Below, piece after piece: positions 3,001-19,954 of a DNA stretch of 37,142 nucleotides (position 1 is its first letter; each line of letters begins with the position of its first letter). The notes beneath the pieces are model-generated. The model did no database searches, was not told where the DNA came from, and saw only the letters and a program-made list of their open reading frames with translations. Source of the stretch: an uncultured Bacteroidales bacterium (GTDB lineage Bacteria > Bacteroidota > Bacteroidia > Bacteroidales > JACABE01); contig CAIZXK010000739.1 in NCBI GenBank assembly GCA_903936865.1, forward strand, positions 1-37,142, written 5' to 3'. The position numbers and the translations under genes were made by a program.

Positions 3001-3770
3001 ATGCTTATTCCCGCCTGTGGAGCAATACCGCCGACACGCTTGGTGAACTCTACCATATATTGCTCATTGGCTGTACTCGAAGCACCCAATGCGTTAATTG
3101 AACTACCTACTTTCAACAGAGAATCTTCAATACCGAATTTATCTTTAACCTTAAATATATCCACTAATTTCCCAATCTGGCGGATGGATTCTTCGGTATT
3201 TCCTCCCAAATCTTCTTTAAGTGCCACATTAATTTTATCGGCTGCTCTTATAAAACCCATTAAATCTTTTTCACCTCTGATACCCAGTTTACCGGCTATT
3301 CTTCCCAGATCCATCAGTTCCAGCTGCGAGGAACGGGTATTTAATTTCTTAAGTTCCTCGTTCATGGCATATACCTGCTCTTTAGCCAATCCGGTGGTTT
3401 TCATCACATCGCCCACTTTATCATCAAATTCTGCAAAAGTGGAGATGGCTTGTTTGCCGGAATACAGCAAACCGCCAATGGCAGCTCCAAAGGCGGCAAA
3501 TAATGAAAAGTAACGGTTGAAATTATCGCCCATTTTGCCCAGCTTTTCCCAGGTGCCGGTAGTAGTTTTCAGGTCGTTGTTATGTTGTTGGATAATCGCT
3601 TTCAGGTTTTTAATTTCGTTAGTGGTTTTCACATATTCCTGCGATCCGATAGTCATCCTGGCTTGCTGAGACACAAGCTTATTCATTTCAGCTTTTATGG
3701 AAGCTATTTCATTTTTCACTTCCTTGCCGTTTATATAAAGGTTTATCCGCCTTGTGTAGGTATTTGCCAT
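1..3770 (-). CDS. Phage tail tape measure protein (TP901/PhageMin_Tail type, Bacteroidota prophage), 3'-truncated by the window edge, at least 1256 aa
   Basis: Manual translation from ATG at 3770: MANTYTRRINLYINGKEVKNEIASIKAEMNKL...FAEFDDKVGDVMKTTGL...NTRSSQLELMDLGRIAGKLGI...GFIRAADKINVALKEDLG...GSSINALGASSTANEQYMVEFTKRVGGIAPQAGISIQNVLGLAATLD, the typical tape-measure core. An Ala/Thr-rich hydrophobic region and a long coiled coil follow. The same frame is open at base 3 (..VDGAGEEA). Confidence 0.9.
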   Translation of the reverse strand, partial: MANTYTRRINLYINGKEVKNEIASIKAEMNKLVSQQARMTIGSQEYVKTTNEIKNLKAIIQQHNNDLKTTTGTWEKLGKMGDNFNRYFSLFAAFGAAIGGLLYSGKQAISTFAEFDDKVGDVMKTTGLAKEQVYAMNEELKKLNTRSSQLELMDLGRIAGKLGIRGEKDLMGFIRAADKINVALKEDLGGNTEESIRQIGKLVDIFKVKDKFGIEDSLLKVGSSINALGASSTANEQYMVEFTKRVGGIAPQAGISIQNVLGLAATLDNLGQTSEVSSTVFSGVISGMYKHTAAFAKAANIDLKTFTSLLKTDGNEAFIRLMQGLKGNSGGMDELTVRMGDLGLEGKRAIAVLGVLANNTDLIRKQQALSNKEFALGTSLTNEFNIKNETAQAKLDKASKALSNMTIELGQKLMPVLRVSTSGFSYFVKSVSVLTDFTIKHSGALLTVTAAILSYTAAAKIEAFFTEKASIAQAQKLIAIKANIAATEATAVATALTTTATNAQALADNASLASKKLTIRAIEAQRFAQYPLVESLTLNRMATEAQTGADKAAVGAARLKIVATESKVVADNAAAKANALNTTATEAQIVADKAASRTTIFSTITTKAGELAKKSATAATLLFSAAKALLTGNITRASAAMRLFNTTVGMSPLGVLTAVAAVAVGAFLILKDGISETAKAASELFSSLVKQRGEMNNLFDIVKKTGEGTAERAEGIKKINEVFGQYLPKLLDEKASLIEIKRAQLDANTALRESIALKSKDKAIQGILEKSADKQKENFERLVEIARKSKGEAAAGLFSSELSDLIDFGRNNEYEKTLEKFNVLKVKYGLHVKDWGDVIKVSATDAFGSIMNAVDKEKDELEKLDAFYASFMGKRIKDLSVEEQIAELRTAQSRAETKETKKDIQAQIDILEKRNNVKAGKPKDSKEYTFTPETTDKKKYSLNNDLEYLREKGILNNQFAKGEIASKEKLEDELLALEIKFLDKQLKSGKYAGEQLASLQSDLMDKQIKQTEEKLKASQFMKEAAGVSELEKENLRYTEELANFDKYVGNKKKMTKLEHDALAGIKAEHLKKLGEINAKSLLKEIEIQQKAADDQLNELKIKHAEELNSITSFEQAKELLIATLSEKQLQKIKTLDQAKKALEKQMQDEETKLQIDHLKKLENQLNAKLGTSLSKPIEFDIVDLNGDEIKLDTEALTEMHKALSDLMGLAANEGIDLSNKVLSDEEKQVLLDKIAEVKKALGGLTTSAVDGAGEEA

Positions 3771-3784
3771 TTTTTTATTTTTGG

Positions 3785-3820
3785 CAAAGGAAAAGAGTAG
3801 GTAGGAAATGAGAAAGGACA
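3785..3820 (-). promoter_or_regulatory. Putative promoter of the tape-measure gene (TGTCCTTT-N20-TTCCTTTG)
   Basis: On the minus strand, TGTCCTTT (3820-3813) is followed by the -7-like box TTCCTTTG (3792-3785), 14 nt before the ATG. Confidence 0.4.
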
Positions 3821-3902
3821 AAGGGTTTTGGTTAATTTGAAAATATTTAGGGGGTTAATGAATTAAAAAAATCAAAAAAATCAAAATTAAATCAAAAATT
3901 AT

Positions 3903-3914: not shown

Positions 3915-3990
3915 AAAGATTCCAAATGGAATAACTTTTTCTCACGCCATGAGATTGGGTAGCCTGTAGCTTAATTGTTACAGGCTTTTT
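3915..3990 (+). ncRNA. Candidate ~75-nt structured small RNA (three hairpins)
   Basis: Hairpin 1 AAAG-ATTCC-aaat-GGAAT-aa-CTTT (3915-3938), hairpin 2 TCTCA-cgcca-TGAGA (3940-3954), terminator hairpin 3961-3986 plus T tract; lies directly behind a -7 box. Confidence 0.4.
3961..3990 (+). terminator. Rho-independent terminator
   Basis: AGCCTGTAGC-ttaatt-GTTACAGGCT-TTTT: 10-bp stem with one G-U pair that forms only on the + strand RNA; the U tract is on the + strand only. Confidence 0.65.
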
Positions 3991-4468
3991 AATTTATTTC
4001 ATTCAGTAAATGTAAGATTTGAATCAAATTATCATCTTCTTTATTCCCTCTGTATTCTTCAATAAATAATACATTTTCTGTGGGAATGATATTTTGCGGA
4101 GTGTCATCAATTATTTTAATATTCTCTAATTCATATCCCTGAATTTTTGTTAAATCTTTAATATAAGATTCAACATTCATAAAACCATTCCATTTTGTAA
4201 TTCTTTGGCAATTATTTCGGGTCCAGATAAACTTGAATTTTGACAAATCACCTGTAATTTTCTTCAGGATAAATTTTGCATAATCTGCCTTTGCAGATGT
4301 CCATATAGCAACATCATATTTCTTAAAGCAATTTTCCAAAAATTTATTCAAATATGGTCTCAGATAAACCCCTCTTTCTTTGAAATAGAAATTGGGTTCA
4401 CGTTTCAAATCCTCATAAGTTGAGTGTAAAAGTGTTTCGTCTATATCTAAAATTAGCAGATTATTCAT
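3989..4468 (-). CDS. NIF/FCP1-like HAD-superfamily phosphatase
   Basis: LLILDIDETLLHS (DxDxT motif), RPYLNKFL, IWTSA..DYA, KDL, IIDDTP. Confidence 0.9.
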   Translation of the reverse strand: MNNLLILDIDETLLHSTYEDLKREPNFYFKERGVYLRPYLNKFLENCFKKYDVAIWTSAKADYAKFILKKITGDLSKFKFIWTRNNCQRITKWNGFMNVESYIKDLTKIQGYELENIKIIDDTPQNIIPTENVLFIEEYRGNKEDDNLIQILHLLNEIN

Positions 4469-4517
4469 TTTTAATGATTTATTTAAAATAAGAAATTATA
4501 AATAAAGAACTATTACT

Positions 4518-4697
4518 CTAAAAAAAATATTCATTTTTATCACTTTCATCAGAATTACCTTCGTCTGAATCTAAATCAAAATACTCAATTTTATAATCTT
4601 CTCCTGCCAACATCTTGCGTGCTAATTCTTTCGTTTCCAATTTTATTTTTTCTCTACCTTCTCTCATTTCTTCTTCAGTTAGTATATGTAATGCCAT
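4518..4697 (-). CDS. Small hypothetical protein with an acidic tail, 59 aa (below the ORF-track cutoff)
   Basis: ATG 4697 to TAG 4518: MALHILTEEEMREGREKIKLETKELARKMLAGEDYKIEYFDLDSDEGNSDESDKNEYFF; fills the gap between two co-oriented genes. Confidence 0.5.
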   Translation of the reverse strand: MALHILTEEEMREGREKIKLETKELARKMLAGEDYKIEYFDLDSDEGNSDESDKNEYFF

Positions 4698-4733
4698 TTC
4701 TTTTCCTCTTTATTTATAAATGATAAATATTTA

Positions 4734-5519
4734 TTAAGTAATATTCAGCTTGTTAAACTTATCAATAATCTCAATAAACTCATCCGGTAATCTTTTTAAT
4801 GTTTCCTCTAAAATATAATCTGGAATAATTTTGTAATATGCAGCAGCTATACCACCTGCCATACATGCAATGGTATCACTATCACCACCGATTGAAATTG
4901 CTAAACGAATACAACTTTCATAGTCTGAACTTTCCAGAAAAGCAACAATTGCTTGTGGTACAGAATCCTGACAGATTTCAGAAAAACGGTATCTTGGTCT
5001 TATTTCATCTAAGGTAAAATTAAGATCATAGTCAAATGTTATTCTGATATAATCTTTAATATCATTTTTTGGAGCACCGTTTTTTGCCAGAAATATGGCA
5101 GAAGCAATGGCCTGAGCTCCTTTTATACCCTCAGGATGATTGTGGGTTACTTCTGCACTTTTCTTTGCTTCTTCCAATACCTTTTCAAGAGTGGAAAATG
5201 CAAAGCCAACAGGACTAACCCGCATTCCGGAACCATTTCCAAAACTGTTATAGGGTTGAGGATTATTGCTCAGCAGCCATTTAAAAAAGTTACCACCATA
5301 TCCACGTCTTGTATATTTTCTTCCGAATGCATGAATATTTTCTGAATAATCTTTTCCGTTTAAAATAGCATCAGCTACTGCCATCGTTAAAACAGTATCA
5401 TCCGTAAAAGTTGTTTCTTCTGTAAACAACTCAAATTCTGTTGTTTTAATATTGTGAAACTCGAAAACAGAACCGATTACATCTCCTGCAATGGCTCCAA
5501 TAATGCTGTGATTTGTCAT
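4734..5519 (-). CDS. ADP-ribosylglycohydrolase (DraG/ARH family)
   Basis: GAIAGDVIG, FTDDT, SFGNGSGMR, THNHPEG and GGDSDT motifs. Likely start MTNHS at 5519; the ORF track extends to 5564. Confidence 0.93.
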   Translation of the reverse strand: MTNHSIIGAIAGDVIGSVFEFHNIKTTEFELFTEETTFTDDTVLTMAVADAILNGKDYSENIHAFGRKYTRRGYGGNFFKWLLSNNPQPYNSFGNGSGMRVSPVGFAFSTLEKVLEEAKKSAEVTHNHPEGIKGAQAIASAIFLAKNGAPKNDIKDYIRITFDYDLNFTLDEIRPRYRFSEICQDSVPQAIVAFLESSDYESCIRLAISIGGDSDTIACMAGGIAAAYYKIIPDYILEETLKRLPDEFIEIIDKFNKLNIT

Positions 5520-5556
5520 ATTGCTTCTATTTTTCATGATTTGTATTACGTCAAAA

Positions 5557-6132
5557 TTAATCATTATTTACTTCTCTTTCTTGTTTAATCCGATTAAATT
5601 TACTTTTTATTTCTTCAATTTCCTTTTCAATCATTTCCTGACTATAATCATCAAGCATTTGTATGAAAAACAGATACATGCAATAACAAAATGCTTGTTT
5701 TAATTCTCCATTAATATCACCATTTAAAAGCAAATCAAGACTGTATTCCAGATATTGCCAGTATTGCATTACTGCCACATCATATTCATCAAGTTTATTG
5801 TCATATTCGGGATAAAATGTTTTAAAATAGCTGCATAATGAAACAAAAGCATACGTATTTTTTTTATCTTTTTCATTCCATAATTCAGGATGATTTCCTA
5901 AAAAACTACCTCCAAAATCATAAAAAACTGTTCTGTATCCTTTGCTGATTCCACAATTTTCACAGTATGCTTCTATCATTAAATACAGAACTCTTTTAGG
6001 ATCAATTGCTTTCCCTTTATTAAGCTCATAAATAAACTCTTCAGTAAAATCTGTATATTCTTTCCTCGAAAAAATCAGATTAAAGACTGGCATCTCAAGA
6101 ATTTCCTTTTTTGAAATTTGTTGCTTTTCCAT
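5557..6132 (-). CDS. Hypothetical protein, one copy of an unrecognised ~165-aa domain
   Basis: 191-aa ORF; aligns by eye with both halves of 6190..7293. Confidence 0.75.
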   Translation of the reverse strand: MEKQQISKKEILEMPVFNLIFSRKEYTDFTEEFIYELNKGKAIDPKRVLYLMIEAYCENCGISKGYRTVFYDFGGSFLGNHPELWNEKDKKNTYAFVSLCSYFKTFYPEYDNKLDEYDVAVMQYWQYLEYSLDLLLNGDINGELKQAFCYCMYLFFIQMLDDYSQEMIEKEIEEIKSKFNRIKQEREVNND

Positions 6133-6160
6133 GTTTTTATTTTTGTGTAAAATAACGAAC

Positions 6161-6187
6161 TACTATTGCAGTGTATCTGCAATAGTA
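6161..6187. promoter_or_regulatory. Palindromic operator 1 (putative WYL binding site)
   Basis: TACTATTGCA-gtgtatc-TGCAATAGTA, perfect 10-bp arms with a 7-nt spacer, in a 57-nt intergenic gap. Confidence 0.65.
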
Positions 6188-6189
6188 AT

Positions 6190-7293
6190 TTATGGCTTTA
6201 TGATGATACAATCTTCAATTGGTATTAATTTGTCTGTTATAAATTTATGGCTGATAATGGGATAAATGTTTTTTTCAAAAATATACATAGCATAACAGAA
6301 TAAAGATTTTGTAGTTTCTGTTAATTCAGTATTTTCAAATAAATCAAAACATTCTTTAATAAACTTGATATTAGAAAAATATAATATACCGAGCTTATTG
6401 TTTGCTTTGCCCGAATAGAAAAACAATTCTTTATATTCATTATATAATCCATAATACATTCTTTCCTTTGAAATACTATTTTTAAATTTATGATTTTCAA
6501 GAATTAAAACTTGTAAGGAAAAATAAAACATCAACTTTTTGATGTAATCATTGTAATTAATTCTAATGCAAGCTTTCAAAAAAACATAAATGGCTCTTTC
6601 TCTATCTAATTCATTCCCCAGATTAATTTCCAGAACAAAAGCATTTAAATAGGAAACATATTTTTGTTTTGAAAAGATACACTTAAAAACAGGGATTTCC
6701 AGTATTTCTATTGCTGTAATATTTTTTGAGTTATCAATCTTAGGTATAATATCGTTTACTGATTCTGTAATTAGATTTTTATACTTTTCTCCTTTATGTT
6801 CTATTAAAGGTTGAATTTCTTTAACATAAATAAATATTCCGTAGCTGAATGCAGATTTTATGTTTTCTTTTAAATTCATGGTTTTTAATAATTCAAAACA
6901 GTATAAAACAAATGTATAATTTGCAAAATTTTGATTATCCGACTGTTCAATTATCTTATCGGAATAAAAACAAAGATTTTTAAATTCCTTATGATGCTCA
7001 TTAAATAACCTTGCTCTTTCTTTAGGATTAGAATATTTATAATCTGCTAAAATAAATAGAGTTATATAAAAATTAAAAGCTGATTGTTTACTGAAATTTA
7101 TTCCACAGTAATGAAAAACAGCATCTAAAAGTAAAATTATACGATCATCAACTACAATATTTTTGCCTTTTTGAACATCTGTTACAAAATCAGTTAGAAA
7201 TTCTGTGTGCCTTTCATCTGAAAATAATTTATCAAAAACAGCAAGTTTCAGAATATCATTTTTTGAAATTTGTTTTGTTTCCATTAAATTCAT
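6190..7293 (-). CDS. Hypothetical protein, tandem duplication of the same ~165-aa domain
   Basis: 367 aa; halves begin KQISKNDILKLAVFDKLFS and KNITAIEILEIPVFKCIFS and end KSAFSYGIFIYVKEIQPLIEHK and KSLFCYAMYIFEKNIYPIISHK. The start may be METKQ at 7284. Confidence 0.75.
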   Translation of the reverse strand: MNLMETKQISKNDILKLAVFDKLFSDERHTEFLTDFVTDVQKGKNIVVDDRIILLLDAVFHYCGINFSKQSAFNFYITLFILADYKYSNPKERARLFNEHHKEFKNLCFYSDKIIEQSDNQNFANYTFVLYCFELLKTMNLKENIKSAFSYGIFIYVKEIQPLIEHKGEKYKNLITESVNDIIPKIDNSKNITAIEILEIPVFKCIFSKQKYVSYLNAFVLEINLGNELDRERAIYVFLKACIRINYNDYIKKLMFYFSLQVLILENHKFKNSISKERMYYGLYNEYKELFFYSGKANNKLGILYFSNIKFIKECFDLFENTELTETTKSLFCYAMYIFEKNIYPIISHKFITDKLIPIEDCIIIKP

Positions 7294-7309
7294 TTTGTTT
7301 TTTTAATAA

Positions 7310-7561
7310 TCATTCAATTATTATATCTTTCTTGTTTTCTACTTTTTCAATCAAATCAGACAGTTCTGTTTTAAGAGATGCAAATTCTTCATTTTGGATT
7401 TTTAAATCAACTATTTTCTTGTCTAAAATCTGCTGTTCAACTTTTAATTGTTCAAGAAATTCTTTTTTATATTTCTTGTCAAAAATTGCTGCAAGATTTT
7501 CATCCACATTGATTTCAATGCCACAATCGGGACATTTGATACTATTTATTTTTGCTTCCAT
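7310..7561 (-). CDS. Small CxxC/coiled-coil protein resembling the N-terminus of DUF2130 proteins
   Basis: MEAKINSIKCPDCGIEINVDENL.. followed by a heptad-like helix. Start moved to 7561 because the upstream in-frame stretch contains the promoter and operator. Confidence 0.55.
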   Translation of the reverse strand: MEAKINSIKCPDCGIEINVDENLAAIFDKKYKKEFLEQLKVEQQILDKKIVDLKIQNEEFASLKTELSDLIEKVENKKDIIIE

Positions 7562-7584
7562 ATTGTTTTTTGTAATTATTGTTG

Positions 7585-7620
7585 CAAAAATAAAAAACCA
7601 TATTGCAGTGTATTTGCAAT
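7585..7620 (-). promoter_or_regulatory. Operator 2 plus -7 promoter box
   Basis: ATTGCA-gtgtatt-TGCAAT (7602-7620); minus-strand TATTTTTG at 7592-7585, 11 nt after the TGCA arm. Confidence 0.65.
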
Positions 7621-7647
7621 GGGGGTAATAATAATTCAAAATTTCAA

Positions 7648-9048
7648 TTATTTCAAAATTTCAATCATCCTCTTAATAAAATCATTTTCTTTTTTAACTA
7701 GTTCGTCAATATTATCATTTGTATTATTCTCAAATTCAGACAAATCAATACCATCAACTACAAATTTGCCCTCACCACCAAGCCATGATTCAGCATAGGT
7801 TTTTTCTTTAATCAATTTAGTATTTAGTGGATATAATAATCCTCCAGCAACTAAATTTTTATTTTTATTAAAATAACTCATATATGTATGAATCTGAAAA
7901 AAATCACTTCTGTCTAAATCTCCATAATTTCCATCTCCGCCACCAGTTTTCATGTTCATTCTTTTATATTTAGCTTCAAATACAGCCACTTCGTTTGTCC
8001 TATTATTAAATAATACAATGTCAGGGCGGATTTCTCTATTATAAAAAATTGGTTTATCATAAACAATAACAGGATACTGAGTTTCAACACGCCAATCAGT
8101 TTCTGATAATCCATTAGTTAAAAGGTTGGATAAATACAATTCCCAAAGTTCTGAAATATCTATTAAATATGCTGAATGTTGAGCTTGGCTTTTGCTATTA
8201 TTTGGATCTAAATCCTGTAATTTAAGTAATAGTTTAGAATAACGTAAAACTTCTTTATAACTAGCATAAATTGGGTTTTCTAATGATTTGTGATTTAATG
8301 CTTTATCAATAAAAAAAGTATCAACCAATTTTCCCGTTTGTTGTTGCTTTAGAAAACTTCTTATACTACCCAATCTCCCTGTTATATCTTTACTAAATTC
8401 CTTTTCTAAAAATTCAATGGTACCGTAAATAATATTTGCAATTTCAGGGACAAAGAGTTGTTCTCGGGTAACACTCGAAATTTTTCCTTTAAATGGGTTA
8501 TCAAATTTGATAAAATGATTAAAATCAATATTCCCGTGTATCTTCGCTTCGTGATATTCAACTTTTTTATACGCTTTTGGAAATCCTAATATAAATGCTT
8601 TTTCAAGTTTTTGAATAAAGAGATGTCCAAGTATATATTTTACCAGTCCAGATTTTGTATTTGTTGGGTTTGCATTGAATGTTGCATCTTGTATAAAGAC
8701 ATTATTTGCAACATCAAGCATTCGTTTTAGTAATACATCTGAAAAACGCGAAGTAATTTCGATATTAACATTTTTGATTGCAAAAAAACCAATAAAATTT
8801 CCAGTACGTGGAAGTTTTATAGTTTCATTATTTTCAATAGTTTGTTGAAATATTTCAAATACCAATTGCTCACTTTTATCTTCTTTTTTATCGCGAGCAT
8901 TAAAATGAAGCAAAGTTTCTAGATTATTTATTAAAATATCTTTAAGCAACCATCTACTACATGGGAGTTTTTTAAAATATTCAGCATGAGATATTGACTT
9001 TTTGTCAAAACCTCCAAAATTCAGGTTATCTTCAAGCTTATTCAGCAT
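7648..9048 (-). CDS. mcrC: McrC-family PD-(D/E)XK restriction endonuclease subunit
   Basis: TGNFIG, ITSRF, IDISELWELY, IRPDIVL..FEAKYK, SDFFQIHTY, GGLLYP; directly downstream of an McrB gene. Confidence 0.88.
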   Translation of the reverse strand: MLNKLEDNLNFGGFDKKSISHAEYFKKLPCSRWLLKDILINNLETLLHFNARDKKEDKSEQLVFEIFQQTIENNETIKLPRTGNFIGFFAIKNVNIEITSRFSDVLLKRMLDVANNVFIQDATFNANPTNTKSGLVKYILGHLFIQKLEKAFILGFPKAYKKVEYHEAKIHGNIDFNHFIKFDNPFKGKISSVTREQLFVPEIANIIYGTIEFLEKEFSKDITGRLGSIRSFLKQQQTGKLVDTFFIDKALNHKSLENPIYASYKEVLRYSKLLLKLQDLDPNNSKSQAQHSAYLIDISELWELYLSNLLTNGLSETDWRVETQYPVIVYDKPIFYNREIRPDIVLFNNRTNEVAVFEAKYKRMNMKTGGGDGNYGDLDRSDFFQIHTYMSYFNKNKNLVAGGLLYPLNTKLIKEKTYAESWLGGEGKFVVDGIDLSEFENNTNDNIDELVKKENDFIKRMIEILK

Positions 9049-9052
9049 TTTT

Positions 9053-10903
9053 TTAATTCTTTAGAGGATTCCAAGGTTTCAAAAACTCAATTCTAGCTAA
9101 GTTAATTTGACCTTCAATTTTTTGCTCATCAAAATAAGTTCTTAAGTATTCCTTTAGTAATTGACCAATGTAATAATCAAAAATGTTTTCCACACTATTT
9201 CTTGAAATTTTATTATTGTTAATATGGTTTTTGATATTTGAAAAATATGATGGACCTATTTGATAGTAATCAGGCAACTTAATATTATTCGTAATAAATT
9301 TATTCAAATAATCAATACTTTTCAAATAATTATCTTTTCCAGTAATACCGCTAATTTCACTCTCCAACCAATCCATATTAACATCAAAATACTCCCAAAG
9401 AAAGCGTCTTCTTAAAGCAAGATCAAAACTATCAATACTTTTATCCACATCATTCATTGTTCCAATTATATATAAGTTTTCAGGAATACATATTTTTTTA
9501 AATTTATCTGGAGAAATTTCCGAATATTGATGGTCAATTTCCTCACCTCTTTTATCAATACAAAATAAAACTTCTCCAAAAACCCTTGATAGGTCTGCTC
9601 TATTTATTTCATCAATTAATAAAAAAAATGGAGTTTTGATATTTTTATCGTCTTCTAAGTTAAAAGTATTAATTTTATTGCAATACTCAAGGAATGATCC
9701 CGCTATAAAATCAAAACTTATTTGTTCATTTTTTATAGGTTTAATACCACCTATAAAATCTTCATAAGTGTAAGATGGATGAAACTGTATAATCTTATAA
9801 CGATCCTTATTGTTATCACATAAAAATTTTATTGAGTTTGTTGCTGCATAGGTCTTCCCTGTGCCCGGAGCTCCATAAAGTATTATATTATTTGAATAAC
9901 TCATTAATTTTTTCATCTCATCTACATATGAAATATCCAAATTGTTATAGTTTTTAAATTTCAATGCATTTTCATATAATTCTTTAAAAATCTCATTTTG
10001 TTTGTCTTCTATATCTTTTTTTTCTATTTTTTCTATCAAATTGAAAAATTGATCAGTAAGATAATATAATGGAAGTTCTACATCTAAGACTTTAATTTCT
10101 TTTGCAATTAAATTTTTTATGTGTGTAATTTTTTTTAAATCGTTATTGCAATCTATAAAAAAATCGCTTCCTAAAATATATTCTATTCTCTCAATACAAT
10201 TAATATCCGTTGAATTTAAATTTGGGAAAAAATTATCATTAATGTAATAAGAATAAAACAACTCTAATGCTGAGTTTTTCATTCCTTTCAAAGATTTTAC
10301 TGTTTTTATAATTTCATTAAAATTTTCATTAATTTTAGCTTCATTAAATACTAATCCACTTTTTAAATTTTCACTTATAAACTGGGAATCTGTACTATAT
10401 AATTTTTGAAATAAAGATTGGATGTCTTTAATTTTTATATTATGCTTATTTCGCAAGTTTGTAGCATTAGAACTTTGTTGTACAGCACTAATATAATTTC
10501 TATTCCAAAAACCTTCAAATTTAATCCATAGATGTTCATCAGTATCATCTAAATTAAATCCATTAACTTTTTCTTTTAATTCTCTTTTCCCCTTTAAATA
10601 ATCATTTTCTCTTGATAATTTACAATGTTTCGAGTCCAATCCTATATGAGTTACAAATCTTTCAATTAATTTCTTAAAAAGGTTTATATTATGCTCCTTT
10701 GATTTTTCTATTAATTTTAATTTTGCATCTTCTAAATTTGCAAATTGATCTATTTGTGAATTACCATTTATCATTTCCCAATTATTATTTTCTTTTTTTA
10801 AGAAAATGGGATAATCTTCATTGAATTTTCGTAAATGTATTTCTTTATTTCCATTCTTATCAATTTCTTTGAATTCTTCTTCGATTTTATTTTTTTTACT
10901 CAT
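9053..10903 (-). CDS. mcrB: McrB-family AAA+ GTPase with a long unrecognised N-terminus
   Basis: NIILYGAPGTGKT, IQFHPSYTYEDFIGG, LIDEINRADLSRVFGE, GTMNDVDKS (NxxD), DLALRRRF. Confidence 0.92.
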   Translation of the reverse strand: MSKKNKIEEEFKEIDKNGNKEIHLRKFNEDYPIFLKKENNNWEMINGNSQIDQFANLEDAKLKLIEKSKEHNINLFKKLIERFVTHIGLDSKHCKLSRENDYLKGKRELKEKVNGFNLDDTDEHLWIKFEGFWNRNYISAVQQSSNATNLRNKHNIKIKDIQSLFQKLYSTDSQFISENLKSGLVFNEAKINENFNEIIKTVKSLKGMKNSALELFYSYYINDNFFPNLNSTDINCIERIEYILGSDFFIDCNNDLKKITHIKNLIAKEIKVLDVELPLYYLTDQFFNLIEKIEKKDIEDKQNEIFKELYENALKFKNYNNLDISYVDEMKKLMSYSNNIILYGAPGTGKTYAATNSIKFLCDNNKDRYKIIQFHPSYTYEDFIGGIKPIKNEQISFDFIAGSFLEYCNKINTFNLEDDKNIKTPFFLLIDEINRADLSRVFGEVLFCIDKRGEEIDHQYSEISPDKFKKICIPENLYIIGTMNDVDKSIDSFDLALRRRFLWEYFDVNMDWLESEISGITGKDNYLKSIDYLNKFITNNIKLPDYYQIGPSYFSNIKNHINNNKISRNSVENIFDYYIGQLLKEYLRTYFDEQKIEGQINLARIEFLKPWNPLKN

Positions 10904-10954
10904 AATATTTGCTTTTTATTTTTAAACAAATTAAATTTCTATTTTCAACTTAAC

Positions 10955-10962
10955 CAAATTTA
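10955..10962 (-). promoter_or_regulatory. -7 promoter box for mcrBC
   Basis: Minus-strand TAAATTTG between the WYL stop codon and the mcrB start. Confidence 0.45.
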
Positions 10963-10969
10963 TATTCAG

Positions 10970-11974
10970 CTATTTATAAAGCTCTATTGCCATTTCCAAC
11001 TCCTCTTTTATCCTTTGCTGCAAGCTTAACGGACTTATTACTTTCACTCTCTTTCCCCAACCTAAAAAATAGGTAATCAGCTCATAATTAGGTATCAGAA
11101 AAAGGCTAATGGTAATTTCATCCTTTTCTTGTTTTAAAAGTTTTTGGCTTATATGCAAGGGTTGGGTTAAAAGGTATTTTCCGGTATGGTCGTTAAAACA
11201 AAGAATGATTTCTACAGGCTGTGCCTGTGGCTCGCTGATACCTAACGTATTTGAAAAGAATAAAGATGCATTTTCAGGTTTTTCCTTGTGTATTGTATCT
11301 AAATTTGTGCTTATTTCTTCAATCCGGTCCAATCCGTAAGTTCTAAGTTCGTTGATTTCATTATCCAAACCTATCAGATACCAGCGGTTGCGGTATTCTT
11401 TCAAATAGTAGGGATGTACAATATGCAACCTTGTTTTCTCTGCATCAAAACGCAGATGATATATATTGAGAACTTCCTTATCGGCAATGGCTTGTATCAA
11501 GGTTTTCAGATACTCGCTACCTTTAAAGAAAGGAACAGTTTCAAACTGTATAAAATCATTTATGTCGGTTTGTTGCTGCAAACGTTGGATATGGATTGCA
11601 TCGCTGATTTTATTTACAGCAGCCGAAAAAGTTTTGAGAATATCCACTTCCTTAAACTGTTGCAAAAGTGAAGATGCAAAACTCAACGCACTCATTTCCT
11701 CATTATTGATAGGTATATTATCAATTGAATAATCTGCATCTTCGTAATAATAAGCTGATTTCTCACGACTGAAAGCAATGGGTGCAAAATACCCTAATCT
11801 CTCATCTTCACGCATATCATGTATATCCTGATTGATAGTTCTTTCGCCAATTGGTGCAATATATAAGGCTTCTTCACAGGCTTGTATTAACCTGGAACGA
11901 CTTACATATTTCTGCTCGAAAAGGCAACGATTAATTACCCTGTAACGGATTAAAGCTTCTTTGTTTGTGGGCAT
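10970..11974 (-). CDS. WYL-domain transcriptional regulator (wHTH-WYL-WCX)
   Basis: MPTNKEALIRYRVINRCL..RTINQDIHDMR (Bacteroidota WYL N-terminal HTH), HPYYLKEYRNRWYLIG, RTYGLDRI, TQPLHISQ, VKVISPLSL. Confidence 0.93.
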   Translation of the reverse strand: MPTNKEALIRYRVINRCLFEQKYVSRSRLIQACEEALYIAPIGERTINQDIHDMREDERLGYFAPIAFSREKSAYYYEDADYSIDNIPINNEEMSALSFASSLLQQFKEVDILKTFSAAVNKISDAIHIQRLQQQTDINDFIQFETVPFFKGSEYLKTLIQAIADKEVLNIYHLRFDAEKTRLHIVHPYYLKEYRNRWYLIGLDNEINELRTYGLDRIEEISTNLDTIHKEKPENASLFFSNTLGISEPQAQPVEIILCFNDHTGKYLLTQPLHISQKLLKQEKDEITISLFLIPNYELITYFLGWGKRVKVISPLSLQQRIKEELEMAIELYK

Positions 11975-12112
11975 AATTCTGTTTTATTTTTAAAAAAGAC
12001 GGAAGACCGAAGTTAATGTGTTGAATTTGTCAACCTTTGTTTTTTGAGTAAAAGTAATGTTTTTTTATTTATTGCTGAAAAATTAACAAAATTATTTCAA
12101 AAACAATCTAAA

Positions 12113-12146
12113 TGCAGATACAATGCAGTGTATAATCTCAATTTTG
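12113..12146 (+). promoter_or_regulatory. Operator 3 plus -7-like box ahead of the AAA ATPase
   Basis: TGCA-gatacaa-TGCA (12113-12127), then CAATTTTG (12139-12146) after the same 11-nt gap as at site 2. Confidence 0.6.
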
Positions 12147-12171
12147 CGAAGTATCTAAAAAACAATAATAA

Positions 12172-13866
12172 ATGGAAAAGCAAGGGAAAATCAAAAGCTT
12201 TAATGCATTGCAAAGTTTGGAAACTCTTTCAGAAAAAGCCAAACAATCGGAACTTTCAGAAAAATATCTATCAGAAGCAAAAAAAGAATATGCTGTTTTA
12301 TGCAAAATGCTAAATCTGAATATCAGGCAATGCAGTTTATTTTCTATCATTCTGCGATTAAATTTAGCAAATGAAAATGCACATATTCACAGTATATGCG
12401 AATACACTAAATGCAGCCCATATTCATTACTTTCCTTTCAACCTGATTTTGATTTTTTAAAAGAAAAAGGATATATAGCCAAAGAAAGCAATAGGAGAAG
12501 AAGTAAAAGACGCAATGTTTATGATATCGAACTTCGTTATTCGATTGATGAAGAAATTGTCAACAATCTAATAAACAATAATATAAATGAAATGAATGAA
12601 AATAAAAAATTAAATGCCATTGATTTTTTATTGGAAGTATATCAAATAGTAGAAGAAAGAAATGATGATGAAGGTAAATATTCGGAAATGCTGGATAGAA
12701 TAAATAAACTAAAAGATAAAAATAAGGATTGTTTACCCGTTAAAGCTGCCAGACAATTTTTGTTAGATAATGAAGAAGAGGTTTTTGCTTATTTAATATG
12801 TTATGCTACTATTGATTGCGATGAAATAGGGCTTAACGATTTATTGAATAAAGTATTTGATTCTGAAAACAGAAAGATCAGATTTAAGAAAAATCTTCTT
12901 TCTGAAAAAAGCAATTTAAGTAAGTATGAATTAATACAGTTTAATCAGGCATTTATAAGAACAGACAGGGAATTGAGTATGACTGAAAAAGGCTTGGAAA
13001 ACTTTATTGGTGATGAAAAAGACATCTTTTTTGGCGATAGTTTAAAATCGGAAGATAAAGATTTGCTTTCTCCGGATACTATACTTCATAAACAATTGTT
13101 TTACAACAAAAAAGAAGGTAAACAACTGGAAGAACTTTCCAATCTATTGAAAAATGATAATTACAAAAATATAAAAGACCGATTAAAGCAACACAGCATG
13201 AGTCCAGCTCTTACCATATTGTTTCATGGTTATCCGGGTACAGGAAAAACGGAGACTGTAATGCAAATTGCACGAGAAACTGGACGCCCTTTATATATGA
13301 TTGACGTTTCAAAGTTTAAAACCTGCTGGTTTGGTGAATCGGAAAGAAATCTGAAAAAACTATTTGACAAATACCGTAAAAAGGTTGATAAAAGTGATCT
13401 GGAACCTATCATGTTGTTTAATGAAGCAGATGCTATTTTCAGCAAAAGAAAAGATGTTAGTAGCTCCAATGTAGCTCAGACAGAAAATGCAATACAGAAT
13501 ATTATTCTTCAGGAAATGGAAACTTTGGAAGGGATATTAATTGCGACCACAAATATGATTGATAATTTCGACAAAGCTTTTGAACGCAGATTTTTATATA
13601 AAATCGGTTTTGACAAACCTGGTGATGAAGTTGCATTACAGATTTGGAAATGCCGTTTTCCGTTTGTAAACGAAAATGAATTAAAACAAATAGCAGCAAA
13701 GTACAAATTTTCAGGAGGTCAGATTGAGAATATTGCGCGAAAATCCACTATGAATCAGGTTTTAAAAGGGATTGCACCTGATTATTTTCAAATTGAAAAT
13801 TATTGTAAAGAAGAGGTTCTGGCAACAGACAATCAGCGTAAAACTTTAGGGTTTTGCATTAGTTGA
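12172..13866 (+). CDS. AAA+ ATPase with an N-terminal helical/wHTH-like region
   Basis: Walker A HGYPGTGKT, atypical Walker B MLFNEAD, sensor I IATTN, arginine finger DKAFERRF, FSGGQIENI, C-terminal ..KTLGF. Confidence 0.9.
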   Translation: MEKQGKIKSFNALQSLETLSEKAKQSELSEKYLSEAKKEYAVLCKMLNLNIRQCSLFSIILRLNLANENAHIHSICEYTKCSPYSLLSFQPDFDFLKEKGYIAKESNRRRSKRRNVYDIELRYSIDEEIVNNLINNNINEMNENKKLNAIDFLLEVYQIVEERNDDEGKYSEMLDRINKLKDKNKDCLPVKAARQFLLDNEEEVFAYLICYATIDCDEIGLNDLLNKVFDSENRKIRFKKNLLSEKSNLSKYELIQFNQAFIRTDRELSMTEKGLENFIGDEKDIFFGDSLKSEDKDLLSPDTILHKQLFYNKKEGKQLEELSNLLKNDNYKNIKDRLKQHSMSPALTILFHGYPGTGKTETVMQIARETGRPLYMIDVSKFKTCWFGESERNLKKLFDKYRKKVDKSDLEPIMLFNEADAIFSKRKDVSSSNVAQTENAIQNIILQEMETLEGILIATTNMIDNFDKAFERRFLYKIGFDKPGDEVALQIWKCRFPFVNENELKQIAAKYKFSGGQIENIARKSTMNQVLKGIAPDYFQIENYCKEEVLATDNQRKTLGFCIS

Positions 13867-13923
13867 TAATAAGGAAGACAGAATATTAATAATTATTAGT
13901 CTGAACAATTTTAAAAATATACT

Positions 13924-14259
13924 ATGTGTAATATAGAAAGTGGGATTAACCTAATTAAAAGAGAATTATTGACAAAGTATCCTATAAGAGGCGGATATGG
14001 TAAATCATTTGAAGATGCAATTGAATTTGACATCCAAGCTGCTTCGAAATTTGTCGAATTAGAACATAATCTTGTTCGCTTTTTAGGTGCTAATATCCAC
14101 AAAATGTACCGTGTAAATAAACAACATCTGAAAAAACATGAAGACAAAATTTATGATATTCTTCATGTTGCTGAAATTGATAGCTACAGGGAGAAATTTG
14201 TTACTGAGATTTATTTCAACATAACTGATTGCTGGAACAGAAAAAACAAGAAGAACTAA
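13924..14259 (+). CDS. Conserved-looking hypothetical protein, 111 aa
   Basis: Co-oriented in the cluster; GGYGKSFEDAI..KQHL..KIYDILHV..EIYFNITD pattern. Function not recognised. Confidence 0.65.
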   Translation: MCNIESGINLIKRELLTKYPIRGGYGKSFEDAIEFDIQAASKFVELEHNLVRFLGANIHKMYRVNKQHLKKHEDKIYDILHVAEIDSYREKFVTEIYFNITDCWNRKNKKN

Positions 14260-14297
14260 AATTAAATTTATACATTTGTAGTTCAAATAATTCATTT

Positions 14298-16322
14298 ATG
14301 AGATACCTGACAAAATCAAGATTTAAAACTGCATTGGAATGCCCTGCCAAATTGTATTATACCAATAAAAAAGAATATGCCAACACAAAAATGGATGACG
14401 ATTTTCTGAAAGCATTGGCCGAAGGTGGTTTTCAGGTGGGAGAACTGGCAAAATTTATGTTTTGTGACGATCCGGTTTTGGAAAATATTACTGTAAATGA
14501 GCGTACTTATGAAGAAGCGTTGAAAGTTACAAATCTTATGATAGCCGAACAAAAGACTGTAATTGCAGAAGCTGCAGTTAAATTTGAGAATCTGTTTATC
14601 AGAACCGATTTGCTTAAAATCAATTATACAAAAAAATTGATTGAATTATATGAAGTTAAGGCAAAATCTTTTGACAGAGAAACTCAATTTACCAGTAAAA
14701 AAGGAGAGATAAGCAGCAAATGGAAATCTTACCTGATGGATGTTGCGTTTCAGCGATATGTGGTTCAAAATGCTTTTCCTGATTTTAAAGTAATTGCCTA
14801 TTTAGTTCTGGCAGATAAGAATCAAACAGCCAGTGTTGATGGGCTTAACCAACTGTTTAAAATCAAAAAAAACGGAGAACAAACCCATATTGAAAGCGAA
14901 CCCGGATTAAAACAGGCTGATTTGGGAAACATGGTATTATCTGCTGTAAATGTGGATGCTGTGGTTGACACAATACATCAACAGCCTTATATTGACGACA
15001 GTGGTGTTAACTGGAGTTTTGAAGATTATATCAATTTCCTTTCAGAAAATTATCAGAAAGATCAAATAATATTTACAGAAATAGGAGCAAAATGCAAAAA
15101 GTGCGAATACAGAGCCAAAGAAGAAGAAAAGCAAAAAGGATTTAAAAGTGGTTTTGAAGAATGCTGGAAAAAACAAGCAAAGTTTGTAGATTCTGATTTT
15201 AAGAAACCTTTGGTTTTTGATATGTCATTTCAGGGATTTGGTGGTAAACTTGACAAATGGATAAAAGAAGGTCGTTTTTTTCTGAATGAACTGGATGAAA
15301 GTGATTTAATTGCAAAAACGAAAGCAAAAACGAAAGCAAATGGTATGTCAGCCGCTGACAGAAGAATAACACAATTAGAGAAAGTTAAAGCAGCTGATTC
15401 TTCTCCATTTTTAGATGTTGAAGGACTTAAAGAAGAAATGTCTGATTGGATTTACCCTCTGCATTTTATTGATTTTGAAACTGCTATGGTTGCACTTCCA
15501 TTCTACAAAGACAGAAAACCTTACGAAGGTATAGCCTTTCAATTCTCACATCACCAGATAAATGAAGATGGAAGTATTGAGCATAAGGGACAGTTTTTAG
15601 AAACTACACCCGGATATTTCCCCAATTTTGATTTTGTTAGAGAACTTAAAAATCAACTGGATAAAGATAACGGAAGTATTTTCAGGTATCATAATCATGA
15701 AAATACTTTTCTGAATCATATTTATCGTCAGTTAAATGCATCAGATACAACAGTTGTTCCCGATAAAGACGAATTGATGTTATTTATCCAATCCATTACC
15801 CATCACAATGAAGACAATGTCTTAAGCTGGAAAGGTGAAAGAGATATGCTCGATCTGGCTGATCTGGTATTCCGTTATTATTTTCCGCCTCAGGCAAAAG
15901 GTTCTTATTCAATTAAGAAAATATTACCTGCAGTAATTGAAAATTCAGAATTTATCAGGAATAAATACTCAAAGCCCATTTATGGCGGAAATGCCGAAAT
16001 AAAAAGCTTAACGTATAAGCAACCTAAAATCTGGATTTCAGAGGAATGGAACAACGATCCCTATAAATCATTAGAAGCTGTTTTCTCTGATATTGATATA
16101 GAAATGAATGATGAATTAGAAGTAAGCGAAACCGGAATAGAAGAAATACATCAGGGAGGAGCAGCAGCAACTGCCTATGCCCGTCTGCAATTCAGTCATA
16201 TTCCTGATTTTGAACGTAAAAAAGTAGAACAAGCCTTGTTACATTACTGCGAATTGGATACTTTGGCAATGGTGATGATTTGGGAATACTGGAATGATGA
16301 GATTAAGAAAAAATACATATAA
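14298..16322 (+). CDS. DUF2779-domain protein (Cas4/RecB-like nuclease N-terminus plus RNase H-like C-terminal domain)
   Basis: MRYLTKSRFKTALECPAKLYY, RTDLL..YEVKAKS, DVAFQ, CKKCEY..EECW, YPLHFIDFET, AFQFSHH, YSIKKILP, LLHYCELDTLAMV. Start set to ATG 14298, behind a TACATTTG -7 box at 14271-14278. Confidence 0.85.
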   Translation: MRYLTKSRFKTALECPAKLYYTNKKEYANTKMDDDFLKALAEGGFQVGELAKFMFCDDPVLENITVNERTYEEALKVTNLMIAEQKTVIAEAAVKFENLFIRTDLLKINYTKKLIELYEVKAKSFDRETQFTSKKGEISSKWKSYLMDVAFQRYVVQNAFPDFKVIAYLVLADKNQTASVDGLNQLFKIKKNGEQTHIESEPGLKQADLGNMVLSAVNVDAVVDTIHQQPYIDDSGVNWSFEDYINFLSENYQKDQIIFTEIGAKCKKCEYRAKEEEKQKGFKSGFEECWKKQAKFVDSDFKKPLVFDMSFQGFGGKLDKWIKEGRFFLNELDESDLIAKTKAKTKANGMSAADRRITQLEKVKAADSSPFLDVEGLKEEMSDWIYPLHFIDFETAMVALPFYKDRKPYEGIAFQFSHHQINEDGSIEHKGQFLETTPGYFPNFDFVRELKNQLDKDNGSIFRYHNHENTFLNHIYRQLNASDTTVVPDKDELMLFIQSITHHNEDNVLSWKGERDMLDLADLVFRYYFPPQAKGSYSIKKILPAVIENSEFIRNKYSKPIYGGNAEIKSLTYKQPKIWISEEWNNDPYKSLEAVFSDIDIEMNDELEVSETGIEEIHQGGAAATAYARLQFSHIPDFERKKVEQALLHYCELDTLAMVMIWEYWNDEIKKKYI

Positions 16323-19177: not shown

Positions 19178-19939
19178 TTAGTCGGTGAAATATTGTAAAT
19201 ATAAAATATTCTGAATATCCGATGTTTCCATCATTCCTATTATCATTTTGATTATTTCCTGATTCAAAAATGGATTTACAGATGTTTTATAAATAATGTT
19301 TTTTCTGTTATTTAGATAAAAGTGTTTTTTATTTATAAAAGCTATCGAACGCATATTTGTTTTCCATTTACTATATTGTTTTTCGACTACTTTAATCTTT
19401 GAAGCTTTTTCATATTCCTGTTTTGATATAGCTTTTGATTTTTCTATTCTCAGCTTTGCAAGTAGCTGATAATAAGAAAAGAAGATTACATCAGCTTTGT
19501 TTTCTGGTTTTTCAATTATAATTTTAATGCGATCATTCTTTAACTTCAAAAATATCATTTCAAATTTATCCCATAGTTCAGCATTAAGAGGATCAGTATT
19601 CAACATTACAATAATTTGATTTAGGCTGAATAATATTTTATTTAAAGATAAATCGTTCAGATAATCAATTAAATATGCTTTTTCATCTTTTAAATCATCA
19701 GTGGTGAATGGACTAAATGTAAATGAAGCTGTAAATTTAAAAACCCGCATACAATGGATGCATTTCAGCACTAAATTATTTTGTTTCATAACACCCCATT
19801 GATCTGTATTATCTGTTGTGAGCATTGAAATATAAGATTCATTCGTATTGCTTTTCTTAATAAGTTCAACTTTATAAGATTGGCAATACGGACAAATCCT
19901 CTTTATTTTGAAATCTGACAAAAAGAAGTTTTCTGACAT
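19178..19939 (-). CDS. Hypothetical protein with a Zn-ribbon and a UVR-like motif
   Basis: CPYC...CIHC pair; LRIEKSKAISKQEYEKASKIK resembles the UvrB/UvrC (UVR) coiled-coil motif. Confidence 0.6.
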   Translation of the reverse strand: MSENFFLSDFKIKRICPYCQSYKVELIKKSNTNESYISMLTTDNTDQWGVMKQNNLVLKCIHCMRVFKFTASFTFSPFTTDDLKDEKAYLIDYLNDLSLNKILFSLNQIIVMLNTDPLNAELWDKFEMIFLKLKNDRIKIIIEKPENKADVIFFSYYQLLAKLRIEKSKAISKQEYEKASKIKVVEKQYSKWKTNMRSIAFINKKHFYLNNRKNIIYKTSVNPFLNQEIIKMIIGMMETSDIQNILYLQYFTD

Positions 19940-19954
19940 CGTTTGATATTATTA

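Follow-up and report, generated by a model that had tools for sequence, protein, structure and literature searches.

A putative promoter-embedded operator for an HTH-WYL-WCX regulator with modular defense cargo in an uncultured Bacteroidales bacterium

Introduction

In Actinobacteria and Proteobacteria, WYL regulators are known to control genes of DNA damage and of anti-phage defense. The promoter grammar of the Bacteroidota differs in being built on -33 and -7 elements. In the literature searched, neither an operator nor a regulon turned up for any WYL factor of the Bacteroidota. Here we analyze a stretch of 37,142 nucleotides (nt) from an uncultured Bacteroidales bacterium (contig CAIZXK010000739.1 of assembly GCA_903936865.1, hereafter the window), in which the gene of a WYL regulator lies among three copies of a short dyad motif of the form TGCA-N7-TGCA. 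An initial annotation, made from the sequence of the window, had read these copies as operators through which the WYL protein controls one co-regulated and undescribed system, later split by an mcrBC insertion. When the genome and its relatives are examined, the motif is very probably a switch for a small set of defense and DNA-processing genes, although as part of a modular arrangement rather than of a single system.

Results

The proposed binder of the three sites is a protein of 334 amino acids with a putative helix-turn-helix (HTH)-WYL-WCX build, encoded at 10970-11974 on the minus strand. Its WYL domain (PF13280; E = 1.1e-14, 54.6 bits against a cutoff of 21.8) and its WCX domain (PF25583; E = 5.8e-06, 27 bits against a cutoff of 23.9, residues 253-327) are recognized by Pfam, and the PADLOC WYL profile spans residues 18-318. 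No Pfam HTH family matched the N-terminus even at E values up to 5, and the profile matches to structures in the PDB begin at residue 71; in the orthologue alignment this N-terminus is the most conserved part of the protein (M1, P2, N4, K5, and R10). The block LKEYRNRWYL is invariant in 24 orthologues, as are three arginines in or beside the WYL motif (R195, R197, and R217); in PafBC and DriD, arginines of the beta4/beta5 loop bind single-stranded DNA (PMC10693628). When a family profile built from the 24 orthologues was compared with solved structures, it matched PafBC (6sj9, 2.2e-15), PafB in its polymerase complex (7p5x, 2.8e-14), and DriD (8tp8, 1.7e-13) far better than BrxR (7t8k, 4.3e-4) or CapW (8e-4 to 2e-5, with 9c5g at 8.2e-4). 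Judged by sequence, the regulator therefore stands closer to PafBC and DriD, which are activators, than to BrxR and CapW, which repress.

A scan of the window confirmed the three sites of the initial annotation, each lying 11 nt before a -7-like box. Site 1 (TGCAGATACACTGCA; core 6167-6181, minus strand, read from 6181 to 6167) begins 3 nt past the stop codon of a gene for a 367-amino-acid protein, has perfect arms of 10 base pairs (bp) at 6161-6170 and 6178-6187, and is followed by a weak box (TTATTTTA, 6148-6155, minus strand) that agrees with four of the six specified positions and stands 15 nt before an ATG at 6132. Site 2 (TGCAAATACACTGCA; 7604-7618, minus strand, read from 7618 to 7604) has 6-bp arms and lies between the stop codon of McrC and a gene for an 83-amino-acid CxxC protein; its box (TATTTTTG, 7585-7592, minus strand) agrees at all six positions, 23 nt before the ATG at 7561. 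Site 3 (TGCAGATACAATGCA; 12113-12127, plus strand), with arms of 4 bp, occupies the intergenic region between the divergent WYL and AAA ATPase genes and reads towards the latter, with a box matching at five of six positions (CAATTTTG, 12139-12146, plus strand) 25 nt before the ATG. The -33 and -7 elements of Bacteroidota promoters are usually spaced by about 19 nt. No TTG is found at the usual distance upstream of any of the three boxes, and the site itself fills that stretch.

The rarity of the motif was assessed in the whole assembly, which comprises 5,275,802 bases in 779 contigs and is 98% complete. In the window, the arms by themselves do not exceed chance, as TGCA-N7-TGCA is found three times against 0.98 expected (at least three copies occurred in 8 of 100 shuffles), and 109 such sites exist genome-wide; the signal resides in the spacer. 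The pattern TGCANATACANTGCA has three matches in the assembly against a mononucleotide expectation of 0.19, and the exact pattern TGCA-rATACAm-TGCA likewise has three against an expectation of 0.05, in both cases all within the window, while the reversed control patterns gave one match and none. Once up to three mismatches are allowed, the window holds seven matches against 6.03 expected, no excess over chance; a relaxed expression matched 17 times genome-wide, and only the three window sites among these are promoter-like. Because there are just three genomic copies, all in the window, the regulon of this organism would be local, within the reach of this assembly.

The same genome encodes a WYL paralogue with 38% identity (G000:C396:2192-3187, locus L023), about 40 nt upstream of which lies CGCAGCCTTTTTGCG. 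This site has the same arms, a different spacer, and TATCTTTG at a distance of 12 nt, which suggests that the spacer sets specificity between WYL paralogues.

The initial annotation had proposed a scan of the genome and of related loci for the motif, and the results support the link to WYL genes that it expected there. One genome per species was scanned for relatives; 553 were found, and the best 80 loci were kept (WYL identity 35-79%, 1,339,902 bases in total). The exact 15-mer, which had been defined on the window alone, has eight matches around these 80 orthologues: five are located 28-114 nt before the start of a WYL gene, one precedes a DUF6150/DUF2779 operon, one precedes sbcDC, and the eighth, within a long open reading frame (ORF) and lacking a box, is probably a chance match. 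A relaxed motif, YGCA-NN-B-TAY-N-TRCR, was found within 150 nt upstream of the WYL gene in 19 of 79 loci, always in a single orientation and never in reverse, although this count is partly circular as the motif was drawn up after those upstream regions had been viewed; ten control windows gave zero or one. The fair tests are the exact a priori pattern and the spacing to the box, which played no part in site selection. Here 33 of 40 distinct sites have a TAnnTTTG match (five or six of six positions) at an offset of exactly 11 nt, pointing away from the WYL gene, so that the distance noted in the window generalizes; any other offset is hit at most once among the 40, and matches in the opposite direction are scattered. 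The seven exceptions, site 1 of the window included, are mostly probable chance matches or weak boxes. The dyad arms are often extended to 5-13 bp across the sites, and the WYL gene is the only gene common to the motif-bearing loci.

In five further genomes, the strict pattern YGCANTGTAYNTGCR gave 14 matches against none for its reversed control. In eight, the box follows at 11 nt; of the other six, five fall inside ORFs, and the sixth (L117, before the c8/AAA genes of L029) has a weak box. A loose composite pattern was found in 67 of 301 genomes of the order, compared with six for the reversed control, but most of these matches fail the strict form: of 30 such loci examined, six meet it, one being site 2 of the window, and a WYL homologue lies no more than 1.5 kb from three of the five foreign ones.

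In the closest relative (G004, WYL 79% identical), three sites are retained and their order is unchanged. That in its divergent WYL/AAA region is the same 15-mer as site 3 (L021, 17961-17975). Past the WYL stop codon, at a distance of 40 nt, the second (site B) consists of TGCAATTCCACTGCA and, 11 nt on, TACTTTTG, and has GC-containing arms of 13 bp; the third, TGCAGATACACAGCA, with one arm mismatch, is followed after 11 nt by TATTTTTG and precedes an ADP-ribosylhydrolase (ARH) gene that is 73% identical to that of the window and directly adjacent to the WYL gene. At this locus there is no mcrBC, CxxC, NIF, 367-amino-acid or 191-amino-acid protein gene. The intergenic stretches of the two genomes, aligned at the sites, do not align beyond the 15 bp.

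Viral contigs were also searched and show no phage enrichment of the motif: the exact 15-mer has 76 matches, about the number expected by chance, and only three have the box at 11 nt. Proteins of 138-163 amino acids encoded on four viral contigs (L155, 3001-3417, and L156-L158) match only residues 1-128 of the regulator, that is, the HTH and the linker, with 36-37% identity, and are without a WYL or WCX part. The L155 gene is flanked by two composite sites, CGCAAATAGACTGCG followed after 11 nt by TAATTTTG and CGCAGATAGGCTGCA followed after 11 nt by TAACTTTG. These HTH-only proteins may represent copies of the regulator, lacking the sensor, with which phages occupy the operators of the host.

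Across the 80 loci, the genes behind the operator change. An AAA homologue is divergent from the WYL gene in 11, all among the closest orthologues, DUF2779 occurs in ten, and ARH in three, so by gene neighborhood the AAA/DUF2779 operon is the only regular partner of this WYL clade and the ARH/phosphatase operon an accessory. The N-terminal domain of the AAA protein is found in 27 of 301 genomes of the order, and 14 of 28 such loci examined have a WYL-domain gene within their 1.5-kb flanks. One genome (G064) has four strict sites, all with the box, which precede sbcD-sbcC, ARPP-1 (divergent from the WYL gene), hsdM-hsdS-orf-hsdR, and a radical-SAM/SPASM cluster, whereas the sites of another locus (L027) precede an AAA gene, a beta-flower protein, and a DnaB_C-type ATPase. 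In distant clades the divergent gene encodes a TPR protein or an unknown 126-amino-acid protein, with outer-membrane and metabolic genes behind. The genes behind the sites are mutually unrelated (AAA, DUF6150/DUF2779, SbcDC, ARPP-1, hsdMSR, the radical-SAM cluster, the DnaB_C-like ATPase, and the TPR protein), which suggests not one fixed system but a regulator family whose putative promoter-operator cassette is portable and whose cargo changes.

The radical-SAM cluster (L120, 3273-7101, in G064:C37) comprises, behind the operator, a 72-amino-acid ORF, a 478-amino-acid protein, an 87-amino-acid ORF, and the radical-SAM/SPASM enzyme. The whole resembles a set of peptide-maturation genes that WYL would control.

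In the window itself, scans with Pfam, NCBIfam, and PADLOC reproduced the gene calls of the initial annotation. Behind site 3, an AAA ATPase of 564 amino acids (12172-13866, plus strand) combines a clade-specific N-terminal domain (residues 1-330) with a Cdc48/VCP D2-like AAA domain. The 330-residue domain is known only from Bacteroidota-type proteins without a family, and the ESM Atlas returned for it unnamed Bacteroidota clusters and one weak winged-helix lead only. An identification of the protein as IetAS/IteA was rejected: NF042959 scores 86.8 bits against a cutoff of 510, through the AAA domain only, and no protease gene is nearby. A second gene with this N-terminal domain (41% identity) lies elsewhere in the genome (G000:C429:385-1287) and, with its six in-frame stops, reads as a decayed effector copy.

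The AAA gene is followed by that of a 111-amino-acid protein of no family (13924-14259, plus strand), which has three relatives in a set of 5.8 billion proteins; its model is poor, with a predicted local distance difference test (pLDDT) score of 61.9, and Foldseek found nothing for it in the PDB at E <= 0.001. The next gene (14229-16322, plus strand; Pfam DUF2779, 9.4e-21) encodes a predicted fusion of a Cas4-like PD-(D/E)XK nuclease with an RNase H-like 3'-5' exonuclease, an architecture that has been described for DUF2779 proteins (PMC13621843, PMC3985635). The D..ExK motif, four cysteines, and the DEDD-like acidic residues are invariant in nine orthologues, while neither the single sequence nor a nine-sequence profile matched a solved structure; the Cas4-like reading of this protein is based on the conserved residues and the literature. 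Pfam searches at E values up to 5 gave nothing usable for its N-terminal half or for the family-less proteins of the locus.

On the minus strand, the first gene behind site 2 encodes the 83-amino-acid CxxC/coiled-coil protein (7310-7561) and is followed by that of the 367-amino-acid protein (6190-7293), which has no family and consists of two tandem copies of the domain of a likewise family-less 191-amino-acid protein (5557-6132), the product of the first gene behind site 1 and a paralogue of each half of the larger one. Both proteins share the start ISKxEILEIPVF..FS. The smaller has only two relatives in the 5.8-billion-protein set and an all-helical model whose pLDDT of 46.5 is too poor to judge; for the larger, the ESM Atlas gave nothing above 0.78. 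Downstream of the 191-amino-acid protein gene lie an ARH3-like ADP-ribosylglycohydrolase (4734-5564, minus strand; Pfam ADP_ribosyl_GH, 1.8e-38; ARH3 in the PDB, 2.2e-19), a 59-amino-acid ORF (4518-4697, minus strand), for which evidence points neither way, and, two ORFs downstream of the ARH gene, a NIF/FCP1-like phosphatase of the HAD superfamily (3989-4468, minus strand; Pfam NIF, 1.3e-31). Among the 12 ORFs at 3989-16322, four of which are family-less, Pfam detects no ADP-ribosyltransferase or sirtuin family. The DUF2779 protein is covered by no PADLOC model, the AAA protein is matched there through a generic AAA domain only, and apart from this domain the operator-bearing operons match no PADLOC system.

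The genes of McrC (7648-9048) and McrB (9053-10903) lie on the minus strand between the WYL stop codon and site 2 (7648-10903), outside the conserved module, and the window motif scan with up to three mismatches found no operator before mcrB. In neither the closest relative nor the other 79 loci does mcrBC adjoin the WYL gene, and a site is found 64-274 nt after the WYL stop codon in three other loci (L042, L065, and L046) as well. Because the closest relative and these three loci have the site soon after the WYL stop and none of the 80 has mcrBC, we take its insertion between the WYL gene and site 2, as the initial annotation proposed, to be probable, and its deletion in the other lineages to be the less simple reading; the intergenic alignment with the closest relative defines no insertion junction. 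DNA contigs from four runs were used neither for nor against insertion: they are short, the mcrBC bins of X9 have almost no depth, one contig of 5,920 nt matches 5552-7624 and diverges just past site 2, and none bridges the mcrBC gap with adequate flanks, the sides being 20-24 letters long. At the 3' end of mcrC, beside site 2, a direct repeat (two copies of TTCAAAATTTCAAT, 4 nt apart, 7637-7668) may mark an edge of the insertion.

The surroundings form a defense island with McrBC, REase-ARP, type I restriction-modification, DUF4062, NOV_C, and GmrSD genes. The REase-ARP nuclease (2.5e-19; 19178-20863, minus strand), which is adjoined by a UVR-motif protein, is encoded 15 kb from the ARH gene and without an operator; its family was named for its link to ADP-ribosylglycohydrolase (ARG) systems. 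At the left edge of the window, an open-ended ORF of 1,273 amino acids (3-3821, minus strand) matches the PhageMin_Tail tape-measure family (2.8e-17) and has a G+C content of 0.38-0.42, compared with 0.22-0.33 for the island, which by these features appears to abut or sit within a phage-like element.

Discussion

What is observed directly is the motif, its confinement to the window within this genome, the fixed geometry, and the joint occurrence with WYL orthologues; together these make it likely that YGCA-rATAc-nn-TGCR is a promoter-embedded operator of the adjacent HTH-WYL-WCX regulator and drives a local, modular defense and DNA-processing regulon. The 15-bp operator would be set in housekeeping-sigma promoters of the Bacteroidota type, with its promoter-near end 11 nt before the TAnnTTTG -7 box, and would occupy roughly positions -38 to -24, the normal place of the -33 element. 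Three units would be controlled in this way: the AAA ATPase, the 111-amino-acid protein, and the DUF2779 double nuclease; the CxxC and 367-amino-acid proteins; and the 191-amino-acid protein, the ADP-ribosylhydrolase, the 59-amino-acid ORF, and the NIF phosphatase. Because the divergent WYL gene has site 3 in common with the AAA gene, the regulator also likely controls its own expression. In the mode that we modestly favor, which resembles that of PafBC, DriD, and SiwR, a regulator dimer would sit on the operator and, after its WYL domain has bound a nucleic-acid-derived ligand (single-stranded DNA or possibly an ADP-ribose derivative), would bring RNA polymerase to promoters without a -33 element, thereby replacing the -33 contact.

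Several observations weigh against this reading. The box of site 1 is weak, and the long perfect arms of this site could also fold as a hairpin directly after a stop codon. The upstream motif is missing from 60 of 79 orthologue loci, mostly those of Flavobacteriales-type orthologues with 35-41% identity, and the count in the remainder carries the circularity described above. Since the motif is not seen upstream of distant orthologues, and both the spacer and the 12-nt box distance differ at the paralogue, the operator seems to drift along with the protein. Furthermore, divergent genes behind the site in other clades are housekeeping-like (TPR protein, outer-membrane protein, OmpA), so the family is not purely a regulator of defense.

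As to the direction of regulation, we lean modestly towards ligand-triggered activation over repression, since the profile is nearer to PafBC and DriD, the operator lies in the place of the -33 element, and the distance to the box is exact before unrelated genes. PafBC of mycobacteria and SiwR of M. smegmatis share the HTH-WYL-WCX build and are among the best-matching solved structures, and their operator, too, is inside the promoter, upstream of the -10 region; they bind at -26, between the -35 and -10 regions, at a site that is required for activation (PMC10693628), which parallels the fixed 11-nt distance seen here. They differ in motif, in sigma and promoter type (-33/-7 here), and in cargo, and activation and the binding of single-stranded DNA would carry over to the present regulator by analogy only. 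PafBC moreover is formed from PafB and PafC, either fused or as a heterodimer, and governs many DNA-repair genes, whereas here there is one 334-amino-acid protein and three local sites. DriD of Caulobacter is closer in form, as a dimer of one HTH-WYL-WCX polypeptide; it is activated by single-stranded DNA and binds a palindromic promoter site in answer to a nucleic-acid signal (PMC9186387). However, the targets of DriD are didA and other damage genes, not a defense island, and its operator sequence is unrelated.

A rival account with the same operator and regulator, which we regard as possible but distinctly less probable than the reading above, is that the WYL protein acts as a BrxR/CapW-like repressor that blocks RNA polymerase at -33 and is released by a ligand, for example ADP-ribose or a nucleotide derivative freed during phage attack. 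BrxR and CapW, which are WYL factors beside defense systems, are repressors, and the defense-island context of the window matches theirs, with a WYL regulator beside, and presumably controlling, anti-phage genes (BREX and CBASS, respectively). Their regulator family occurs beside many different cargo sets, though we know of no fixed operator-to-promoter geometry across these cargoes. In five loci (L028, L029, L030, L032, and L104) the site lies 28-45 nt before the WYL ATG, where bound protein would hinder WYL transcription, suggesting autorepression at least; in this direction the distance from site to box is not fixed, as simple occlusion predicts. The published model of ARG systems regulated by WYL or Nudix factors also assumes negative regulation (PMC9503650). 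Against this, PafBC and DriD are nearer to the profile than BrxR and most CapW chains by 9 to 11 orders of magnitude. Occlusion needs no exact 11-nt spacing, as is seen at 33 of the 40 sites before unrelated genes, although such spacing, expected of an activator, is compatible with a repressor that occludes the sigma contact. Finally, the operator occupies the stretch in which a TTG would be expected from the usual spacing.

It is improbable that the motif is read by another transcription factor, or by an alternative sigma factor for which it is the upstream promoter element. Its position at -33, where sigma region 4 binds, and its asymmetric spacer with an orientation fixed relative to the promoter would suit such a reader, but the WYL gene is what the motif-bearing loci have in common, the arms form a dyad, the downstream box is an ordinary TAnnTTTG, and no sigma or anti-sigma gene is among the Pfam-scanned ORFs of the window. 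Control of the LexA type was considered and rejected, as the LexA-like motifs reported for Bacteroidota differ (GGA-N5-TCC and CTAA-N5-TTAG; PMC8565304). Least probable is a reading of the sites as hairpins in RNA or DNA, acting as terminators or attenuators, or as small repeat copies: the 10-bp arms of site 1, just past a stop codon, and the 13-bp arms of site B in the closest relative, just past the WYL stop, would fit a hairpin, but the arms of sites 2 and 3 are too short for a stable one and it is the spacer and box distance, not the stem length, that are conserved, and the flanks cannot be aligned beyond 15 bp and there are just three genomic copies.

Part of the cargo has a published counterpart. 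ARG-centric conflict systems, including an ARPP-WYL pair and REase-ARP, were predicted in 2022 by Iyer, Burroughs, Anantharaman, and Aravind (PMC9503650). As described there, they resemble the present locus in that no ADP-ribosyltransferase is coupled to the ADP-ribosylglycohydrolase, a phosphatase is tightly linked, the regulator is of the WYL or Nudix kind, accessory nucleases vary, and ARPP is paired with a WYL factor; here ARPP-1 stands behind the same operator in one relative (G064) and REase-ARP lies in the island of the window. In the window the WYL gene is 5.4 kb from the ARH gene, with mcrBC and three further genes between. The published systems are placed in actinobacteria, planctomycetes, and proteobacteria rather than Bacteroidota, and their phosphatases are given as of the rhodanese or HAD 5'-nucleotidase type, not the NIF/FCP1-like HAD type found here (PMC9503650). 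None of their chaperones (TY-Chap1-3, vWA, SseB) is recognized here by Pfam, the 191- and 367-amino-acid proteins being family-less; the description (its section 3.8) gives no operator, and ARG is only an accessory in this WYL clade, at 3 of 80 loci.

Two claims of the initial annotation thus need qualifying. A single co-regulated system overstates what the relatives show, given that AAA/DUF2779 alone recurs as a regular partner and that unrelated operons stand behind the operator in G064; one regulator with modular cargo fits better. Its being undescribed holds in part: an ARG and phosphatase under a WYL or Nudix regulator had been predicted (PMC9503650), while the operator, its fixed distance to the box, and the AAA and DUF2779 genes as regulated cargo were not found described in the literature searched.

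More speculatively, and as a tentative idea rather than a favored one, the arrangement might represent a Bacteroidota 'sigma adaptation', in which a PafBC/DriD-like WYL sensor, bound to an operator fixed 11 nt ahead of the -7 box, stands in for the -33 contact and so provides a portable ON switch that different lineages would have set before the cargo they acquired. This cargo would include the AAA unfoldase and Cas4/DEDD nuclease, as a new inducible system against phage or foreign DNA, as well as ARG/phosphatase, type I restriction-modification, SbcCD, and ARPP-1; phages may answer with HTH-only copies on the same operators.

The rigid geometry offers a handle on how a WYL factor contacts the RNA polymerase of Bacteroidota, and the operator may serve as a sequence tag for inducible defense cargo in uncultured members of the phylum. 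One candidate for such cargo is a new effector pair, absent from PADLOC, of a Cdc48-like AAA ATPase and a Cas4-like/DEDD double nuclease. For part of the ARG-centric systems, which have so far been predictions only, the proposed operator would supply the missing cis-element.

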